From positions 18,965 through 82,964 of the forward strand of contig JBMNER010000004.1 of the NCBI GenBank assembly GCA_050948885.1: a stretch of 64,000 nt of DNA, read 5' to 3'. Below, in pieces: positions 6,446-63,162 of the stretch. The DNA is from Bacilli bacterium. Its GTDB lineage: Bacteria > Bacillota_I > Bacilli_A > RF39 > UBA660. The translations under genes were made by a program, and so were the position numbers. The stretch's first letter is position 1. Each line of letters begins with the position of its first letter. The notes under the pieces are model-generated. The model worked only from the letters and a program-made list of their open reading frames with translations, ran no database searches and had not been told where the DNA came from.

Positions 6446-8995
6446 TTAATCATCCTTTAACATTTTCTTTAGCTCATATAGTTTATTTAAAGCCTCAATT
6501 GGGGTAATGGTAAGGGGATTAAGAGTTTGTAGTTCTTGTTCAATTAGGCTAGGTTCTGAGGCTTTAAATGGTGGTTCAAGATTAAAAGTTATTTGGTTGG
6601 TTTTGGTTAAACCATTATTATTATTTTCATAACCTTTTAAGATATGATGGGCTCTTTTAATTAAAGGAGCGGGTAAATTAGCTAATTTAGCGACATGAAT
6701 CCCATAACTTTTATCCACGGCTCCGTCTTTTACTTGATGGAGAAAAACAAGCTCACCCTCTTCTTCATAAGCACTAACATGAATGTTTTTTAAATTAGTT
6801 AGGTTTTTGTCAAGTGATGTTAATTCATGATAATGAGTAGAAAAGAGAGTTTTAGCCTTGATGTGTTCATGAATATATTCAATCATAGCTTGGGCGATAC
6901 TCATCCCATCATAAGTAGCCGTACCACGCCCTAATTCATCAAATAAAATTAAACTCTGCCTAGTCGCCTGGGTAATGGCTCTATTAGCTTCCAACATTTC
7001 CACCATAAAGGTTGATTCGCCACTTACTAAATCATCACTGGCTCCAATACGAGTAAAAATCTGATCAAAAATAGGTAGTTGAGCCGCAAGAGCGGGAACG
7101 TAACAACCTATTTGAGCCATAATAACAATTAGGGCTAATTGGCGCATATAAGTTGATTTACCAGCCATATTAGGGCCAGTAATAAGAAGGATATTAGTGT
7201 TATCATCCATTATAATATCATTAGGGACAAATTCACCAGTAGCAACTCTTTCCACTAAGGGATGACGACTACCCTTGATATTGATAGATCGTTCTTTAGT
7301 TAAAGTTGGTCTCACATAGTGATACTTTTCAGCTACAGTAGCAAAAGATTGTAAGACATCAATGGTGGCAATAATATGGGCATTCCTTTGTAACTTGGGA
7401 ATATAGGCTTTAACCTGCTCTCTAATATCTAAAAATAATTCATATTCAAGATCAATTATTTTTTCTTCGGCGCCTAAAATAAGGGCTTCTTTTTCTTTTA
7501 ATTCCGGTGTAATATAACGCTCACAATTAGCGAGAGTTTGTCTCCGTTCATAATTATATTCATCTTTAATTAAATTAATATTACCTTTACTTACTTCAAT
7601 ATAATAACCAAAAATCTTATTAAAACCAACTTTTAAGTTCTTAATACCGGTTTTCTTACGTTCCGTTTGTTCTAATTTAGTTAAGAACTTTTTACCACCA
7701 CTTCTAGCTTCCTTTAACTCATCTAAAGTTTGATTATAACCGGATTTAATTAAAAAACCTTCTTTAATTGTGATGGGTGGATTATCATAAATACTACAAT
7801 CTAATAACTGATATAAATTAATAACATCTTCTAATGGTCCTGGACCATTTATCGTTATTAAGTGTTTATTAATAGCCGGTAATACTTGAAGTGAAGTTTT
7901 TAGTTGTAATAAATCACGAGCATTAGCGTTACCATAAGCAATGCGCCCACATAACCTTTCTAAATCATAGATATTTAATAATAACTGTTGTAGCTCCGCT
8001 TTAATAATAAATTCATTTAATAAGGTAGCCACAATATCATAACGATACTTTATTTTAGTTATATCTAATAAGGGTTGTTCCAACCACTTTCTTAATAACC
8101 TTGAACCCATCGCCGTTTTTGTATGATCAAGTAACCATAATAACGAATAAGTTCTTTCTTTCAACCTTAAAGTTTCCACTAATTCTAGATTACGTTTCGT
8201 GTGAATATCCATCTTTAAATATTGGGTGCTCTCGGTAATAACTACGGGCTGCAGATGCGTTAGAGCTCTTTTTTGGGTAGCGACTAAATAGGCGAGTAAG
8301 TGTTTAACCGTTTCTTGATAACGAACATCTTTTAGCTCTCTATATAATTGATGATAATCATCATTTTCTAGCGTACCATCAAAAACACTAGCGCTCAACC
8401 CATGTTGTTGTTTTAAAATGTTAATAATCTTTTTATCAACCTTATCACTAATTACCACTTCCGTTAGATTACGATTTAAAATCTCCCCGATCACCATATC
8501 GGGATCTGGTTCCACTAATAATACATTAATCTCCCCAGTAGAGATATCAGTATAACTAATACCATAAGCATGATGAAAATCAATCACATTACCGAGATAA
8601 TTATTTTCCTTTTCATCAATTGCCTCAGCATTCATAACGGTTCCTTTACTAATGACTTGGACCACGTCTCTTTTAACTAGCCCTTTCGCGTCTTTAGCGT
8701 CTTCTAGTTGTTCACAAATAGCCACCTTATAGCCTTTGTTTAATAGCTTTTCAATATAACCATTAACCGCATGATATGGGACGCCACACATCGGAATACG
8801 TTCTTTTAAACCAGCATTTCTACCCGTTAAAGCAATTTCTAGTTCCCGGGCGGCTAAAATACCATCTTCAAAGAACATCTCATAAAAGTCGCCTAAGCGA
8901 TAAAATAAAATGACTTCTGGATAGTTGTCCTTTATTTCCATATATTGCCTCATCATCGGCGTTAATTTATTACAATCCACTTCTAATCTTTTCAC
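6446..8995 (-). CDS. mutS: DNA mismatch repair protein MutS; start ambiguous among 9004, 8995 and 8956
   Basis: Mismatch-recognition N-terminus TPMMRQYMEIK, Walker A GPNMAGKST and a complete C-terminus. An AGGTGG RBS precedes the GTG at 8995. Confidence 0.9.
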   Translation of the reverse strand: MKRLEVDCNKLTPMMRQYMEIKDNYPEVILFYRLGDFYEMFFEDGILAARELEIALTGRNAGLKERIPMCGVPYHAVNGYIEKLLNKGYKVAICEQLEDAKDAKGLVKRDVVQVISKGTVMNAEAIDEKENNYLGNVIDFHHAYGISYTDISTGEINVLLVEPDPDMVIGEILNRNLTEVVISDKVDKKIINILKQQHGLSASVFDGTLENDDYHQLYRELKDVRYQETVKHLLAYLVATQKRALTHLQPVVITESTQYLKMDIHTKRNLELVETLRLKERTYSLLWLLDHTKTAMGSRLLRKWLEQPLLDITKIKYRYDIVATLLNEFIIKAELQQLLLNIYDLERLCGRIAYGNANARDLLQLKTSLQVLPAINKHLITINGPGPLEDVINLYQLLDCSIYDNPPITIKEGFLIKSGYNQTLDELKEARSGGKKFLTKLEQTERKKTGIKNLKVGFNKIFGYYIEVSKGNINLIKDEYNYERRQTLANCERYITPELKEKEALILGAEEKIIDLEYELFLDIREQVKAYIPKLQRNAHIIATIDVLQSFATVAEKYHYVRPTLTKERSINIKGSRHPLVERVATGEFVPNDIIMDDNTNILLITGPNMAGKSTYMRQLALIVIMAQIGCYVPALAAQLPIFDQIFTRIGASDDLVSGESTFMVEMLEANRAITQATRQSLILFDELGRGTATYDGMSIAQAMIEYIHEHIKAKTLFSTHYHELTSLDKNLTNLKNIHVSAYEEEGELVFLHQVKDGAVDKSYGIHVAKLANLPAPLIKRAHHILKGYENNNNGLTKTNQITFNLEPPFKASEPSLIEQELQTLNPLTITPIEALNKLYELKKMLKDD

Positions 8996-9020
8996 AGCTA
9001 CCACCTATCTTTATTATACC

Positions 9021-9052
9021 AAAAAAAAAGAAGTTAGAAACGACTTCTTTTT
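9021..9052. terminator. Strong rho-independent terminator (AGAAGT-loop-ACTTCT flanked by A9 and T-run) ending the upstream gene before mutS
   Basis: The minus-strand reading is GAAGTcgtttctaACTTC followed by nine T. It overlaps the stop of the 9051..9473 gene. Confidence 0.7.
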
Positions 9053-17357: not shown

Positions 17358-19259
17358 TTAAAATTGCTCATACATAGAAAACATTGGAACCACAATTGAT
17401 AATAAAATAATACCAACAATTATTGATAATATAACAATCATCACCGGTTCAATAAAATTTTTCACTTGGGTAATCGCAAGACGATGTTGTTCTTGGTAGT
17501 AATCACCTACCCGATTCATCATTGACCCTAGTTCCCCGGTTCTCTCCCCGGTAACTAACATTTCATAAGCGACTGATGGAAAAGCCCAATTATCCTTAAA
17601 AGCCGCCGATAAAACGTCACCGCGCGCTACATTCGTAATAGAATCTTCAATAATAAATTTATAAATTTCATTATCGGTAATTTTACTTAAAATTTCCATA
17701 CTGGCAGTAATATAGACATTATGAGTTAATAAGGAACCGAAAGTTTTAGTAAATATAGTCACCTCATTATAAATAATAATCTTACCGATAACCGGTAAAT
17801 TCATCAATACCCATTGTACTAGATATCTGAAAAAACGAACAGTTCTATATAGTAATCTTAATAAAATAATAACAATAATAAGACCACCAACTAAATAGAA
17901 AATATTTTTACGGAGAAAATCACTAGTATTGATAACTATTAAAGTAATTGCCGGAATATCAGCTTCCATATTCCTAAACATGTCAACAAACTGCGGCACA
18001 ATGTAAATCATAACAAAAACAATAACCCCAGTGGCCATAACTAAAACCCCCGTTGGGTATAACATCGCTGATACCATCTGACTTCTCGTTTTTTGAGCCG
18101 AATCATAATATTCAGCCATATCATCCAATACCTCGGATAACTTACCGGTCATTTCCGCCGTTTTAATCATATTAATAAGTAAACGGGGAAAAGCAATATT
18201 TTGTTTTTCCAGCGCTTCACTAAAATTATCCCCCATCACTAACTCATAAACAACCGCTTGTAAGACTTTAGTAAGTCGCCGATTTTTAGTTTGACGAGAT
18301 AGAATTTTAACCGCGTCAACTAAAGGGATTCCCGCTTTTAAATAAGTAGATAACTGAGTTAATAAAAAAGTTAAATCTTTTAGTTTAATGCGGTAATTTT
18401 TAATGGCGCCAGAATGAAAGAATTGAATCCATTTTGAGGTTTTAATCTCATAAACTTCAGCGCCTTCGGCTAATAAGTAGGAATGAACATCCATTTTAGA
18501 GAAAGCATCAAAATAACCACTAATAATCCGCCCCTCGGCATTTTTAACTAGATACTTATAAGTTACTTTAGCTTCTGATCGTTCTTCATCTTGTTCTAAA
18601 AAGTCAACTAGTAGAACTTTTCGCTGAATATCACGGCGATTGCGGATTTGTTTAACAATGGTGAGATTATTATACCTTCTAATAAAATATTTTTTAACAT
18701 CTTGCCACCATATTTTAGCGTTTTCTCTTTTAATCATAAAATATTGTTTAAGACCCGCTACTAATTTTCGTGGATAAGCTAAAATTGGAAAAACAAGTCT
18801 ATCTTTTATAAAAAGAATTATTTTTATGATAACGTTTTTAATACCAATAAGAAGTTGACGAAAACCATTAAATATTTGTTGCGTGATAAAAAACAGACCC
18901 CGGCCAAAATTTATCACTATCATAATAATAAATTGGTAGATTTTTTTAATAAGATGGGAAATCCCCACAATAATATATTTAAAAAAGAGTAAAATTAAAT
19001 AAATTAATTTATAAAATCCTTGATAAATAATGATTAATAAAGTTTTTAAACCAACACCAAAATAAAGAAAGATTAATGATATTGACTTAAAAAGAAAACT
19101 AACTAATAGTTTTGTTTGCTTGATAATTAACTTTACTAAATAAAATAAACCCCGACCAAAGAATTTAATAATAAGAACTGGGATGGTTATTAAATATGAA
19201 ACAAAATAATAGACATAAATAAAAGGACGTAGTAAAACCGCGAAGTTCATATCTAACAC
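17358..19259 (-). CDS. GspF/PilC/ComGB-family platform protein with an unusual ~220-aa polytopic N-terminal extension
   Basis: The C-terminal ~400 aa show the GspF double-domain pattern (two cytoplasmic domains separated by TM helices). The N-terminal extension repeats the motif FGRGLF and is very hydrophobic. Confidence 0.85.
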   Translation of the reverse strand: MLDMNFAVLLRPFIYVYYFVSYLITIPVLIIKFFGRGLFYLVKLIIKQTKLLVSFLFKSISLIFLYFGVGLKTLLIIIYQGFYKLIYLILLFFKYIIVGISHLIKKIYQFIIMIVINFGRGLFFITQQIFNGFRQLLIGIKNVIIKIILFIKDRLVFPILAYPRKLVAGLKQYFMIKRENAKIWWQDVKKYFIRRYNNLTIVKQIRNRRDIQRKVLLVDFLEQDEERSEAKVTYKYLVKNAEGRIISGYFDAFSKMDVHSYLLAEGAEVYEIKTSKWIQFFHSGAIKNYRIKLKDLTFLLTQLSTYLKAGIPLVDAVKILSRQTKNRRLTKVLQAVVYELVMGDNFSEALEKQNIAFPRLLINMIKTAEMTGKLSEVLDDMAEYYDSAQKTRSQMVSAMLYPTGVLVMATGVIVFVMIYIVPQFVDMFRNMEADIPAITLIVINTSDFLRKNIFYLVGGLIIVIILLRLLYRTVRFFRYLVQWVLMNLPVIGKIIIYNEVTIFTKTFGSLLTHNVYITASMEILSKITDNEIYKFIIEDSITNVARGDVLSAAFKDNWAFPSVAYEMLVTGERTGELGSMMNRVGDYYQEQHRLAITQVKNFIEPVMIVILSIIVGIILLSIVVPMFSMYEQF

Positions 19260-19357: not shown

Positions 19358-19747
19358 ATGTTTTCATATAAGCCAAATCCATTCTTTAATCCCTATTCTT
19401 ATTCATTAGCAACAAAATCAGCAATTAATTGGGGAAGTTTATTAACTAATACCCAAAAAACATTGGGGGTTATTAATCAAGCTATCCCAGTCTTTTACCA
19501 AATAGGTCCCGTTTATCGTAATGCGAGAACATTATTTAAAGTGATGTCCGAATTTAATAAAGCTAGCACTAATAACAGTAGTAGTAATCGTAGTAGTAGT
19601 AGTAACAGTAGTAGTACTAATAGTAGTAATAATGCCTCTAGTGTATTTAATAATCCAAAATCTAATCTTAAGCTGACAACTACTAATACCAGTGATAGTA
19701 CTAATAATAACCCAGATTTTAATAATCAACCAAACTTCTTTTTATAA
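19358..19747 (+). CDS. YqfQ/VrrA-like protein with a Ser/Asn-rich tract encoded by AGT/AAT trinucleotide repeats
   Basis: TQKTLGVINQAIPVFYQIGPVYRNARTLFKVMSEF resembles the conserved YqfQ core. It is adjacent to trmK-sigA-dnaG, as yqfQ is in Bacillus. Confidence 0.5.
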   Translation: MFSYKPNPFFNPYSYSLATKSAINWGSLLTNTQKTLGVINQAIPVFYQIGPVYRNARTLFKVMSEFNKASTNNSSSNRSSSSNSSSTNSSNNASSVFNNPKSNLKLTTTNTSDSTNNNPDFNNQPNFFL

Positions 19748-59385: not shown

Positions 59386-59604
59386 ATGAAACAGGTTTTA
59401 ATTACGATAATTAAAATATATCAACAAATACCCCTACCCTGTCATAATTATTGTCGTTTTATTCCTACTTGTTCTAATTATAGTATTAAGGCGATTGAAG
59501 AATATGGCTGTATAAAGGGACTTTTCTTAGCTGTAAAAAGATTATTAAAATGTAACCCCTGGGGACCTTTTGGATTTGACCCCGTTATAGAAAGGAAAAA
59601 ATAA
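59386..59604 (+). CDS. yidD: Membrane protein insertion efficiency factor YidD
   Basis: Conserved CRFIPTCSNYS and LKCNPWGP motifs. Confidence 0.85.
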   Translation: MKQVLITIIKIYQQIPLPCHNYCRFIPTCSNYSIKAIEEYGCIKGLFLAVKRLLKCNPWGPFGFDPVIERKK

Positions 59605-60470
59605 TGCGTAAAGTTAGTTTAATTGTTATTTTATTACTAATAACACTAATAACAAATGGCTGTTTTAAAAGAGATACCATGGAGGATATTGATATCTATA
59701 CAACCGCTTACCCGATTGAATATATTGTCTCTACCTTATATAAAGAACATGCCCAAATCAATAGTATTTATCCTAATGATGTTAATATTAATCAATACAC
59801 CTTAACTGAAAAACAAATAAGAGATTATAGTAAAGCCCATTTATTTATTTATAATGGTTTAAGTAAAGAAATAGATTATGCCCTTGATTTAATTAATACT
59901 AATCAAAACATAAAAATCATTGATGCGGCCATGGGTATGGAATACACAAATTATGTTGAAGAGATATGGTTAGATCCCGCTAATTTATTAATGTTAGCCC
60001 AAAACATTAGAAATGGGTTTCATGAATATATAGAAAACCCTTATTTAAAAAAAGAGATTGATGATAATTATGATTATTTAAAATTAACTATCTCAGAACT
60101 AGATGCGGAAATGAAAGATATTGTATCCGATGCGAAATATAAAACAATTGTAGTTGGATCTGATTTACTTAAGTTTTTAGAAAAATATAATTTAAATGTT
60201 ATTTCTTTAGAAGAAAATGAAGAGCTAACGGCTAAAACAATTAATGATGTGACTACTATGATTCAAAATGAGGAAATAAAATATATTTATCTAATTAATA
60301 ATGAGAAACCTAATAATACCATTAATAACTTATTAAAGGATAACAAACTCGAACTTTTATCAATTCATTCTATTAGTAACTTAAATGAAAAACAAAGAGA
60401 GAATAAAGAAGATTATATTACTCTAATAAAAGCGAATATTGAGTTGATAAAAAAAGAATTATATAAATAA
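59604..60470 (+). CDS. Lipoprotein of the ZnuA/TroA solute-binding fold, apparently lacking the canonical metal-ligand histidines
   Basis: Lipobox LITNGC. WLDPANL corresponds to the family WLDP motif. Start overlaps the yidD stop (TAATG). Confidence 0.5.
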   Translation: MRKVSLIVILLLITLITNGCFKRDTMEDIDIYTTAYPIEYIVSTLYKEHAQINSIYPNDVNINQYTLTEKQIRDYSKAHLFIYNGLSKEIDYALDLINTNQNIKIIDAAMGMEYTNYVEEIWLDPANLLMLAQNIRNGFHEYIENPYLKKEIDDNYDYLKLTISELDAEMKDIVSDAKYKTIVVGSDLLKFLEKYNLNVISLEENEELTAKTINDVTTMIQNEEIKYIYLINNEKPNNTINNLLKDNKLELLSIHSISNLNEKQRENKEDYITLIKANIELIKKELYK

Positions 60471-60473
60471 TAT

Positions 60474-60505
60474 TATCTAAAAAAACCCTTATATCTAAGG
60501 GTTTT
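60474..60505 (+). repeat. 32-nt hairpin terminator ATCTAAAAAAACCCTTATATCTAAGGGTTTTT, copy 1 of 2 identical direct repeats
   Basis: Identical 32-mer at 63031-63062. Hairpin CCCTTA-tatc-TAAGGG with flanking A and T runs. Functions as the terminator for the ZnuA-like gene. Confidence 0.6.
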
Positions 60506-60709
60506 TATTTATTAACAACCTATGTATCCTTTAGTTTAGAATATATATATATTAACCGGTTAAATCCTATTAAAGTAATTCGCTAATTTATTTTTATTTA
60601 AAAATTAAATTCATTTAAAACTCTCTTAGGTTTAAAAAATTTAATATTATTATCAATCTTATAAAACCTGTTTATCACCTTATAATTATATAGTTACCCT
60701 TTTTTTATT

Positions 60710-62674
60710 TTAAAAGTCAAAATTCAATGATTTAACAATAAATTTATTTTTAATCATAATTTCATTTATTGGTTTTAAAGGAACCTTATCTATTTGAGTA
60801 TAAAACTGTTCAACAACATCATCTTCACAAGAAATATTTCTTTTTTCCAAAATTGCCTTTATTTCGTCTTCTCGTCTATCAAAATAATCATAACTCATCG
60901 CCCCTATTGCCACTAATTTTTCACATATGTCATTTCGATTCTTTGAAATGCATTTTAAATATTGGTCACTTTGATTTAATAACCCTTCTTGATCCCATAC
61001 CTTTATATTCCCATTAAGCAAGTCACTAAAAGTTTGCCCCGTTTCATCTAATACTGAAAGGGTTGAAGCATATATCTCCCTTAATCCATACCCACAAGGT
61101 AATACCATATCGACAATAAAATGCCAAGAAACACATATTTCTTCAATAAATTTTTGGGTTATATCATCCGCCTTATTATTTTTAAAATCGACCAATTCTG
61201 AAAGTGTTTTAACAACTGAGTCATAGAAAAGATCCGTCTCTTTACAATTCTTATGTTGCGCTAAGGTTATAGCAATATTGTATATATTATTAAAATATGG
61301 TAATAACTTAAATTTGGAAATTTCAAAATACCATAAATATTTTTGCGATTGAACTACAGTCGGTGACTGTTTAAAAACTTTTCGCGTATAATATTCAACC
61401 CTATTAATAAATTCGGAAGTAACTTCTTCATCTAAATGAACAATTAATCCATTAATTGTAGGCTCATATAATACAGTTTGTTCCTCTATCTCTATCGGAA
61501 TTATAAAATCAAAACAATAAAGCTCTCCAAATTCCATTTCCTTTTTTATATCAATATTAAATTGAACTTTTTCCGAAATAATTTTGCCATTGGTCGCATC
61601 AAGAAGAATTTTTGTCCCGGTCGGAAAGAGGGACATAGCATCTTTATAGTTAACAACACATGGCTTACCCATTTCTCTAGCAACTATAGCCGCATGTGAA
61701 AGTATAGAGCCTTCTTCAGTTATAATACCGCTAGCTTTCTTTATGGCTGGTAAATACTCCGTATTAGTAGCCGCAGCTACTAATATATAGTCTGAGGGAA
61801 AATTTTTAATTAGCTTTAGAATTTCTTCATCATCTAAATTTTCATCAATAACATAAGTTTTACCACGCGATATGCCAGGTGACGCTATTATCCCTTTTTC
61901 ATTACTTTGTTTTTTTATAAAAACTTTACTAGTTATTGGTCTAGCTTGAACTACATACGGATTATACTCTTCATCAACACACCATTCTAAATCCATCGGG
62001 GTTTCAAACCCATCAATAATTGTTTGGAAATGAGGCATTAAATTTTCAAGGGCTTTTATATCTAAAATTTTACCTACGAAAGATAAACTTTCTTGGTTTA
62101 TTTTTCCCTCTTTATTTATTTGAAAAGTTATTCTTGATGGAGTAATCTTCCCGCTAACTAATTGGTCAGCTAATCCTTCAACACATTCAATCAAAAAGAC
62201 TTTTGAACCATCTAAATCTATGGCCTCAGTAAATGCCACGCCAGAGATTGTGGGATTAACCATTTCCTGAATTATTATATTCATTTCTTGGTTTTTATTA
62301 TCATACGCATTAACTATTTCTGTTTCGGCACTTGCCCTAACATAGGAAATAGCTTTCAATACTTCTTCTAACTCATTATTAACATTTAACATTGTTTTAA
62401 ATATCCCGGCAAAAGACTTCCCCTGGCCATCTTCCGAAGACGCCGAAGAACGAACCGCTATTTTTTTACTTTTAGATAAATTATTTAGAAAATCTAAAAA
62501 TTCATTTATCGCTTGTTTATCTTTTTTTAAAAGTAAACCATCTATCATATTACTAGAAATCGCAAATCCTTTAGGTATTGGGATGCCTAATCTAACTAGT
62601 TGTGATAATCCTTTTGCTTTACCGCCATAACTCTCACCAGCATTAAAAATATCAGTTATAAAGAAATTTCTCAT
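60710..62674 (-). CDS. PEP-utilising-enzyme family protein: PPDK-type nucleotide-binding N-domain plus phosphohistidine swivel domain plus an uncharacterised ~290-aa C-terminal domain; no PEP/pyruvate TIM-barrel
   Basis: GGKAKGLSQL...PKGF, AVRSSASSEDGQGKSFAGIFKT and IIQEMVNPTISGVAFT form the PPDK_N domain. LVAAATNTEYLPAIKKASGIITEEGSILSHAAIVAREMGKPCVV is the mobile His domain. The C-terminal domain is Cys-containing and unassigned. Confidence 0.6.
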   Translation of the reverse strand: MRNFFITDIFNAGESYGGKAKGLSQLVRLGIPIPKGFAISSNMIDGLLLKKDKQAINEFLDFLNNLSKSKKIAVRSSASSEDGQGKSFAGIFKTMLNVNNELEEVLKAISYVRASAETEIVNAYDNKNQEMNIIIQEMVNPTISGVAFTEAIDLDGSKVFLIECVEGLADQLVSGKITPSRITFQINKEGKINQESLSFVGKILDIKALENLMPHFQTIIDGFETPMDLEWCVDEEYNPYVVQARPITSKVFIKKQSNEKGIIASPGISRGKTYVIDENLDDEEILKLIKNFPSDYILVAAATNTEYLPAIKKASGIITEEGSILSHAAIVAREMGKPCVVNYKDAMSLFPTGTKILLDATNGKIISEKVQFNIDIKKEMEFGELYCFDFIIPIEIEEQTVLYEPTINGLIVHLDEEVTSEFINRVEYYTRKVFKQSPTVVQSQKYLWYFEISKFKLLPYFNNIYNIAITLAQHKNCKETDLFYDSVVKTLSELVDFKNNKADDITQKFIEEICVSWHFIVDMVLPCGYGLREIYASTLSVLDETGQTFSDLLNGNIKVWDQEGLLNQSDQYLKCISKNRNDICEKLVAIGAMSYDYFDRREDEIKAILEKRNISCEDDVVEQFYTQIDKVPLKPINEIMIKNKFIVKSLNFDF

Positions 62675-62703
62675 ATCTTCTACAATCCTTCCTTTAAAAT
62701 TAT

Positions 62704-62735
62704 AAAACTATATCACTAACTAAAGCGATATAGTT
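62704..62735. promoter_or_regulatory. Perfect 10-bp inverted repeat AAACTATATC-N12-GATATAGTTT between the small upstream ORF and the PEP-utilising-family gene
   Basis: Exact reverse-complement arms. Candidate operator or attenuator in the gene's 5' region. Confidence 0.4.
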
Positions 62736-62741
62736 TATAAT

Positions 62742-62842
62742 TTAACATCTTTGAGCTTCACAAAGTTGTAATAACTCTTTTTCAATTGCATCAAGTGAAA
62801 CGGTTCGCCTTGAATTAATAATCCACTTAATAAATTTTATCA
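62742..62842 (-). CDS. Possible 33-aa ORF (MIKFIKWIINSRRTVSLDAIEKELLQLCEAQRC) with AAGAGG ribosome-binding site
   Basis: RBS with 7-nt spacing. No family recognised. May be spurious. Confidence 0.2.
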
Positions 62843-63030
62843 TAAAATAACCTCTTTTTAATAATTTAGAATGGTTTATTTACTTAGTTTTGTATATTAA
62901 CATAAAACATTTCAAGAATCAAGCCTTTTTACCAATCTTCCCCATGTGGTGTTAATAACTCGCCTCTTTTATTATATGTTTTATATGCTTAATATTTATA
63001 AAAGACTTATAATATTATTAATTTTTAATC

Positions 63031-63062
63031 ATCTAAAAAAACCCTTATATCTAAGGGTTTTT
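63031..63062 (+). repeat. Second identical copy of the 32-nt hairpin repeat, 9 nt from the 3' end of tRNA-Ser; bidirectional terminator for the tRNA array
   Basis: Exact match to 60474-60505. Confidence 0.6.
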
Positions 63063-63071
63063 GTTTTCTTT

Positions 63072-63162
63072 TGGCGGAGCAGGAGAGATTTGAACTCTCG
63101 CACCGGTTACCCGATCTACGCCCTTAGCAGGGGCGCCTCTTCAGCCTCTTGAGTACTGCTCC
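63072..63162 (-). tRNA. tRNA-Ser (anticodon GCT), type II with long variable arm, CCA encoded
   Basis: Manually folded: acceptor GGAGCAG/CTGCTCC, anticodon loop CTGCTAA, long variable arm, T-loop TTCAAAT. Confidence 0.85.

Follow-up and report, generated by a model that had tools for sequence, protein, structure and literature searches.

Identical predicted terminator hairpins on both sides of a peptide–phosphotransferase cassette between a ZnuA-like gene and a tRNA operon in a Bacilli genome

Between a gene for a ZnuA-like metal-binding lipoprotein and a tRNA operon, the genome of a Bacilli bacterium (GTDB lineage Bacteria; Bacillota_I; Bacilli_A; RF39; UBA660) carries a 2.5-kb cassette that holds a gene for a 33-aa peptide and a gene for a phosphotransferase resembling phosphoenolpyruvate (PEP) synthase, and that is bordered on each side by the same 32-nt hairpin. 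The locus lies in a 64,000-nt stretch of assembly GCA_050948885.1 (contig JBMNER010000004.1, positions 18,965 to 82,964), which was analysed as a whole and is called the window; its own numbering is used below. Contigs of other assemblies and organisms are denoted by L and a number. From left to right, the locus contains the following features.

59604–60470, plus strand: gene for the ZnuA-like metal-binding lipoprotein, the left flank of the slot, with the left repeat copy as its predicted terminator
60475–60506 (39 nt with flanks, 60472–60510), no strand assigned: left repeat copy, from exact match, terminator scan and fold; predicted common terminator of the convergent ZnuA-like gene (plus strand) and peptide–enzyme operon (minus strand)
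60507–60709, no strand assigned: non-coding spacer of 203 nt, 82% A+T and including a (TA)n run, that separates the left terminator from the enzyme stop codon
60710–62674, minus strand: gene for the PEP-synthase-like phosphotransferase, 654 aa (Pfam)
62705–62736, minus strand: hairpin or inverted repeat between the enzyme and peptide genes, from scan, fold and comparison
62742–62843, minus strand: gene for the 33-aa peptide (MIKFIKWIINSRRTVSLDAIEKELLQLCEAQRC), an open reading frame (ORF) with the ribosome-binding site AAAGAGG at 62851–62857
62894–62922, minus strand: putative promoter of the peptide–enzyme operon, with TTGATT, a 17-nt spacer and a TG-extended TAATAT
63031–63062 (39 nt with flanks, 63028–63066), no strand assigned: right repeat copy, the predicted terminator of the tRNA operon, and the apparent orthologue of the hairpin beside tRNA-Ser in L013
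63072–63402, minus strand: tRNA operon Ile(GAT)-Asn(GTT)-Glu(TTC)-Ser(GCT), with the right copy as its predicted terminator

The elements that a preliminary description of this DNA had placed between the two copies, namely an AT-rich (TA) spacer of about 200 nt, a gene of the PEP-utilising family, a small ORF and an inverted repeat, were all present where it had put them. It was also right that the right copy lies 9 nt from the 3′ end of tRNA-Ser(GCT), which ends at 63072 and is the last gene of the minus-strand Ile-Asn-Glu-Ser array. Rfam models matched the four tRNAs at the locus and nothing else. The promoter was read from the sequence and falls below the threshold of the consensus scan, hence its designation as putative; equivalent promoters stand upstream of the peptide gene in L012, L100 and L103. 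The 203-nt spacer may be decayed sequence, since in relatives a ThiF-like gene directly follows the enzyme gene; a tblastn search of the spacer found no remnant of ThiF-like or other partner genes.

An exact-match scan of the window found the 32-mer ATCTAAAAAAACCCTTATATCTAAGGGTTTTT exactly twice, in direct orientation, at 60475–60506 and 63031–63062. The direct duplication and the right-hand coordinates had been described correctly, whereas the start first given for the left copy (60474) was one base too low. Similarity between the copies reaches 39 nt (60472–60510 and 63028–63066) with two mismatches (37/39, 95% identity), and the pair is the strongest direct repeat of the window, the remaining direct repeats being at chance level. 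With up to three mismatches allowed on both strands of the window there was no third match, and 100 shuffles gave zero matches. The 26-nt palindromic core had no further copy in the window with up to 7 mismatches, and the 10 kb outside the window contained no additional copy of the 32-mer, which gives two copies per ~74 kb of this genome. In the metagenome collection, the 22-nt core matched, within this species, solely contigs of this locus. It also matched two unrelated organisms, L008 (5226–5247, after a chorismate-synthase-like gene) and L011 (533–554), where it is a terminator of other genes. These are independent terminators, and a stem-loop of this sequence is easily evolved. As far as is visible, the 32-mer is not a high-copy or dispersed family in this genome.

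The terminator scan resolved each copy into a perfect 11-bp stem with the 4-nt loop TATC, preceded by A7 and followed by T5. Read on the minus strand, both copies give the hairpin followed by U7, the stronger tail, as against T5 on the plus strand. The left copy folds with −11.9 kcal/mol on the plus strand (z −3.3) and −12.3 kcal/mol on the minus strand (z −2.9), and the right copy with −12.4 kcal/mol (z −4.7), well under shuffled controls. The left copy begins 5 nt past the stop codon of the ZnuA-like gene and 203 nt past that of the enzyme gene; the right copy lies beyond tRNA-Ser and upstream of the putative promoter of the cassette. The two copies are thereby positioned at the 3′ ends of three transcription units. 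By structure and placement, both are predicted bidirectional rho-independent (intrinsic) terminators, and the right copy is predicted in addition to insulate the cassette promoter downstream of it. Their direct orientation is explained by function alone, because both minus-strand operons use the stronger U7 side. Loop and flank included, the copies agree at all 32 nt, and therefore point to copying rather than independent origin. The suggestion that the repeats may simply be a reused terminator element thus held in that each copy is terminator-like and suitably placed, but not in the sense of a generic high-copy motif; the two copies in ~74 kb had no companions, and the metagenome contigs of the species matched at this locus only.

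Strains of the species vary around the two copies. Insertions and deletions were seen at 60540–60547, in the (TA)n tract, and at 60699–60712, around the enzyme stop codon, and the enzyme of L018 has 661 aa compared with 654 aa in the window. Neither repeat copy was changed in any strain. In the short-k (Logan) assemblies, the contigs L004 (2584 nt) and L007 (936 nt) are broken precisely where the two repeat copies lie. The isolated, hairpin-bounded cassette contig in Logan is an assembly artefact, and could be mistaken for a circular or mobile element.

The ZnuA-like protein allowed the same slot to be located in relatives, the nearest of which have ZnuA-like proteins of ~57–63% identity; homologues between ~90% and 63% identity were absent from the protein database. 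In L013 the gene order to the left is conserved (FtsW, Pdf, SMC, RNase III, YidD, ZnuA, the last 61% identical). A single hairpin of the CCCTTA...TAAGGG type (AAAAGCCCTTACAAAAGTAAGGGTTT) follows ~110 nt after ZnuA, then comes GTTTTCTTAA and then the tRNA-Ser 3′ end, without a cassette; the stretch between the hairpin and the tRNA-Ser 3′ end reads GTTTTCTT. When AAAAGCCCTTACAAAAGTAAGGGTTTGTTTTCTTAATGGCGGAG of L013 is set against AAAAACCCTTATATCTAAGGGTTTTTGTTTTCTTTTGGCGGAG of the window, the agreement with the window's right copy extends over hairpin, spacer and tRNA end. Judged by this alignment, L013 is a cassette-free version of the site, and its single hairpin appears orthologous to the right copy. 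From 8867–9040 and on to 16867, L013 carries a prophage in tRNA-Ser(GCT), with tail, XhlA-like, M23 peptidase, HNH and lysis genes, which leaves a 20-nt tRNA 3′ fragment (TGGCGGAGCAGGAGAGATTT) beside the ZnuA-like gene. The phage uses tRNA-Ser as its attachment site in L013.

The order in L107 is ZnuA, a GCC-type terminator of its own, a guanylate-kinase-like gene and tRNA-Ser (slot 7043–7778). The guanylate-kinase-like gene is 57% identical to one at 18918–19469 of L005, found in the window's genome 8 kb rightward of the slot, and this implies rearrangement of a segment of ~8 kb with two tRNA arrays. L015 and L106 have other neighbours beside ZnuA. The four related lineages (L013, L015, L106 and L107) are thus without the cassette next to ZnuA, and the contents of their slots vary; the ZnuA/tRNA-Ser slot is conserved but variable in content. 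Since the terminators nearest ZnuA in L015 and L107 belong to another type (GCC...GGC), the comparison suggests that the CCCTTA-type hairpin was ancestrally on the tRNA side, and that the left copy in the window is a derived duplicate. The arrangement is therefore not common to all relatives, as two related genera keep the ZnuA/tRNA-Ser adjacency without the cassette. The proposal that the repeats mark the boundaries of an inserted cassette was supported at this inter-genus level (L013 is cassette-free and L107 has another gene), but not among strains.

The reading that we favour, with a probability of about 0.6, is that one resident bidirectional terminator was duplicated when a self-contained operon came into the slot, and that the copies now serve three transcription units. 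Ancestrally, the ZnuA-like gene would have been followed by a terminator and then by the tRNA operon, its tRNA-Ser end nearest, and the two units would have been convergent. A self-contained operon of 2.5 kb, consisting of a promoter, the 33-aa peptide gene, a leaky-terminator hairpin and the phosphotransferase gene, would then have entered the intergenic slot, and the terminator of the tRNA operon would have been duplicated during entry, leaving one copy per side. In the present arrangement, the right copy would stop the heavily transcribed tRNA operon before the cassette promoter, and the left copy would stop both the cassette operon and the convergent ZnuA-like gene. We infer that the event was an old insertion and not a loss in the relatives, and that the duplication accompanied the insertion. 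This reading is supported by the conservation, in L012, L100 and L103, of the peptide–hairpin–enzyme unit with a putative promoter of its own.

Several observations weigh against this reading. We know of no insertion mechanism that makes a duplication of 32–39 nt without a recombinase, and Pfam searches of the 10 kb on either side of the cassette found no recombinase, integrase or transposase family; the cassette itself holds peptide and enzyme genes only. All contigs of the species that cover the locus (L001–L004, L009, L010, L018 and L019; ~99.7% identical), those from other samples included, carry the cassette, and those that span both ends keep both copies. A cassette-free strain with a single repeat, as the preliminary description had suggested looking for, was not among them, and no empty site was seen in any same-species contig covering the locus. 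The enclosed gene is typical of the window in G+C content (0.308 compared with 0.311 ± 0.028), in G+C content at third codon positions (0.218 compared with 0.242 ± 0.029) and in codon distance (0.135 compared with 0.128 ± 0.029). The comparison of composition and codon usage with the neighbouring genes thus gave no anomaly, and nothing marks the enclosed gene as foreign. The closest other relatives are ~60% identical in the flanking proteins, and at that distance differences in synteny are weak evidence of polarity. Finally, the count of the 32-mer covers ~74 kb of this genome, and bounds the genome-wide copy number indirectly only.

The polarity of the event could be the reverse, in which case the operon with its two identical terminators would be the older state, and related genera would have lost the operon by recombination between the direct repeats. 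Deletion between direct repeats of 32–39 nt would leave one copy, as in L013, and the native composition of the enclosed gene and the retention of the cassette in all strains fit such a history. However, L013, L015, L106 and L107 are without the cassette next to ZnuA and differ in what their slots contain, homologous peptide–enzyme pairs occur in quite different contexts and within larger clusters, and a prior duplication would still be required for the copies to be identical. We consider a loss in the relatives unlikely. It is quite improbable that the 32-mer belongs to a dispersed family of near-identical terminators, of the repetitive extragenic palindrome, miniature inverted-repeat transposable element or uptake-sequence type, for which the 2.5-kb spacing would be meaningless. 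The occurrence of the 22-nt core as a terminator in the unrelated L008 and L011, which shows how easily it evolves, speaks for such a family, as does the fact that this organism encodes ComEC and ComEA, but no other copy was found in the window (7 mismatches in the 26-nt core) or in the 10 kb beyond, and metagenomes holding this species were matched at this locus only.

The hairpins might also be recombination sites. They can be viewed as 9-nt inverted arms around the asymmetric spacer TATATCTA, similar to the core site of a tyrosine recombinase or Xer, and the cassette would then be non-autonomous and moved in trans, in the manner of cis-mobilisable elements and plasmid dif modules. The identical direct repeats do exactly bracket a self-contained module without a mobility gene, the slot differs in content between relatives, integration into tRNA-Ser is demonstrated by the L013 prophage, and the peptide–enzyme unit is found in differing genomic contexts. 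Yet an inverted repeat with a short loop is generic to every intrinsic terminator, there is no recombinase within 10 kb and no presence/absence polymorphism in the contigs of the species, the site was not found elsewhere, and the search of plasmid and phage collections with the C-terminal domain of the enzyme gave no match, so that no homologue of the cargo is seen on plasmids or phages. Site-specific recombination at these hairpins is accordingly very improbable. Hardly any weight can be given to two independent terminators that converged, or that were homogenised by gene conversion. Selection on A-tract, stem and T-tract does constrain the sequence, and both copies serve the same strand. The 32/32 identity, however, includes the loop and the non-structural ATCT flank, stem and loop vary freely among the terminators that follow orthologous genes in relatives, and gene conversion over so short a tract is unlikely.

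Known types of mobile element were considered and rejected. The repeat is a perfect 26-nt palindrome without GTTRRRY-type cores (by eye), present in two copies with no integrase, which excluded an integron cassette. An element of the insertion sequence IS200/IS605 type, or a palindrome-associated transposable element, was rejected from the lack of tnpA and tnpB, the peptide and enzyme cargo and the single locus. The repeat contains no tRNA sequence and stops 9 nt short of tRNA-Ser. The idea of a classic tRNA island of the integrase type, with attL and attR sites, was dropped on this ground together with the lack of an integrase within 10 kb, the lack of presence/absence among strains and the typical composition.

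The arrangement nevertheless shares features with several described systems. Like bidirectional intrinsic terminators in general, the repeat has a short stem whose core is G+C, a loop of 4 nt, an A-tract before and a T-tract after, and stands at the 3′ ends of transcription units; it differs in that a second copy, 2.5 kb away, matches the first at all 32 nt. With tRNA-linked islands and prophages it has in common the direct repeats around accessory DNA beside tRNA-Ser, the very tRNA that the L013 prophage uses, but no integrase is present here, 9 nt separate the repeat from the tRNA, and the 2.5 kb with its two genes has a native composition. Minimal mobile elements, variable intergenic slots between conserved genes, have been described in Neisseria. 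The slot resembles them in its conserved flanks (ZnuA and tRNA-Ser) and its lineage-specific contents without mobility genes; the comparison here is between genera rather than strains, and duplication of a flanking terminator is not a feature of those elements. The locus is instructive for genome architecture in that an operon placed next to a strongly transcribed tRNA operon, with a gene on its other side, appears to have become insulated at both ends by copies of a resident terminator. In these uncultured Bacilli, genes turn over recurrently in the ZnuA/tRNA-Ser slot, which is occupied by the cassette, by a prophage (L013) or by another gene (L107).

The repeat alone is of modest interest, and the larger value of the locus lies in its cargo, a rare and uncharacterised peptide–enzyme module. 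The enzyme matches PPDK_N (PF01326, 5e-35) and PEP-utilizers (PF00391, 9e-24), and lacks a match to the PEP/pyruvate TIM barrel (PF02896). No NCBIfam model reached its cutoff (PEP synthase, 167 bits compared with 598; rifampin phosphotransferase and PigC types, 113–156 compared with 999–1300). The phospho-His swivel domain is central (residues 293–363), and in the family alignment the catalytic His327 and the nucleotide-binding motifs are invariant. AlphaFold2 models had a mean confidence (pLDDT) of 88.8 for the whole protein and 91.5 for residues 378–654. Fold matches in the PDB (2ols, 5hv3, 1kbl) cover only the N-terminal 380 residues. The remainder is a family-specific C-terminal domain of ~275 aa, modelled as a small beta sheet and a helical bundle in place of the TIM barrel, without a significant fold match in the PDB. 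This domain was found in only 44 clusters among 1.84 billion representatives, nearly always at the same position in proteins of 610–680 aa; an enzyme that joins ATP-grasp and phospho-His domains to such a C-terminal domain is thus rare. A scan of genome contigs with the enzyme-family alignment picked up generic phospho-His motifs and returned only ordinary PEP synthases of 25–33% identity.

The enzyme shares with PEP synthase and pyruvate phosphate dikinase (PPDK), with rifampin phosphotransferase (RPH) and with PigC/RedH an ATP-grasp domain and a swivelling phospho-His domain with an invariant catalytic His. It differs from PEP synthase and PPDK in being without the PEP/pyruvate TIM barrel, and from RPH and PigC in domain order. 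The order in RPH and PigC is ATP-grasp domain, substrate-binding domain and C-terminal His domain, whereas the His domain of the present enzyme is central.

The 33-aa peptide ORF is also predicted by gene callers in independent assemblies, and homologous genes for peptides of 29–33 aa lie directly upstream of the enzyme homologue at all three homologous loci that were compared (45–53% identity): L012 (MIKLIREYFNSRKVVKLDNIEKKLLESCEAQRT), L103 (MLKFIKSLFSKKSKRLDKTDLELLAICETHRS) and L100 (MLKFIKSLFSKKLDKNDLELLAICETHRS). M1, K3, I5, S11, L17, D18, L24, L25, C28, E29 and R32 are invariant across the four lineages, and the C-terminal motif CE[AT][QH]R[STC] is conserved. From these features, the peptide is a candidate precursor or substrate peptide. 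The perfect 10-bp inverted repeat mentioned in the preliminary description corresponds to the hairpin at 62705–62736, which is borne out by its fold (−18.5 kcal/mol, z −5.0, followed by a U-rich run) and by its conservation in four lineages. Between peptide and enzyme genes, a hairpin with a U-rich tail occupies the equivalent place in L012 (1228–1257), L100 (5942–5970) and L103 (2164–2196), these coordinates being approximate. Each of the 10 base pairs can form in all four sequences, and at two of them A-U is replaced by G-C in a compensatory manner, which with n = 4 is supportive but not conclusive. The hairpin probably acts as a leaky terminator, setting the ratio of peptide to enzyme transcripts, or else stabilises the transcript. 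In lantibiotic operons, too, a hairpin is known to separate the precursor gene from the modification genes.

In the relatives, from gut (human gut included) and sediment Bacilli, the pair is part of a recurrent gene cluster (L100, 2872–12432; L103, 205–7785; L012, 1114–8412) that is covered by no curated family. The core in 3/3 relatives consists of the peptide, the PEP-synthase-like enzyme, a ThiF-like adenylating enzyme and an SBP_bac_5-like protein. A radical S-adenosylmethionine (SAM)/SPASM protein and an M3 peptidase are present in L100 and L103, a pyridoxal-phosphate (PLP)-decarboxylase-like protein and a 400-aa unknown protein in L012 and L100, and a methyltransferase in L012 only; ABC-type genes are also among the neighbours. 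A tblastn search of the window and the 10 kb beyond found none of the ThiF-like, radical SAM, M3 peptidase, decarboxylase-like or SBP-like partners. An enzyme homologue of 37% identity in L104/L105 (928–7818) occurs without the peptide. Around it lie a 41-aa ORF, two S51 peptidases and paralogues resembling TyrRS, TrpRS and MetRS/CysRS, and the homologue may take part in another kind of ligation system, for amino acids or peptides.

Most likely, the cargo represents part of a pathway that modifies peptides, either truncated or reduced to a minimum, and similar to the pathways of ribosomally synthesised and post-translationally modified peptides (RiPPs). If the enzyme works like PpsA, PPDK and rifampin phosphotransferase, His327 would receive a phosphoryl group from ATP, and the swivel domain would then pass it on to a substrate that the C-terminal domain binds. 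From the domain architecture and gene neighbourhood, the most plausible candidate for this substrate is the co-encoded peptide, at its conserved C-terminal end. Features in common with RiPP operons are the short conserved gene for the peptide, preceded by a putative promoter of its own, and the covarying, U-tailed hairpin before the enzyme gene; radical SAM/SPASM, ThiF-like, peptidase and transporter-type genes are added in the relatives, but not in the window or the 10 kb beyond. The differences are that the hallmark enzyme here is a PEP-synthase-like phospho-His enzyme, and that the window has the peptide and this enzyme only. A full-text literature search found no paper tying PEP-utilising enzymes to ribosomal peptide precursors, although absence there is not proof of novelty.

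A bolder proposal, which we regard as possible but doubtful, is that the cassette represents the minimal core of an undescribed class of ribosomal peptides. The enzyme would bind the 33-aa peptide via its unique C-terminal domain and phosphorylate CE[AT][QH]R[STC] through the phospho-His swivel. In the relatives, steps by the ThiF-like, radical SAM/SPASM, decarboxylase-like and peptidase enzymes would follow, and the identical hairpins could in addition act as recombination-competent ends that let the two-gene unit move. If it is true that the enzyme acts on the peptide, this would mean a new activation chemistry for ribosomal peptide biosynthesis, and a simple two-gene system for testing it.

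Elsewhere in the window, a short imperfect tandem repeat of TAGTAG/TAACAG units was observed at 19564–19623, inside an ORF at 19358–19747.

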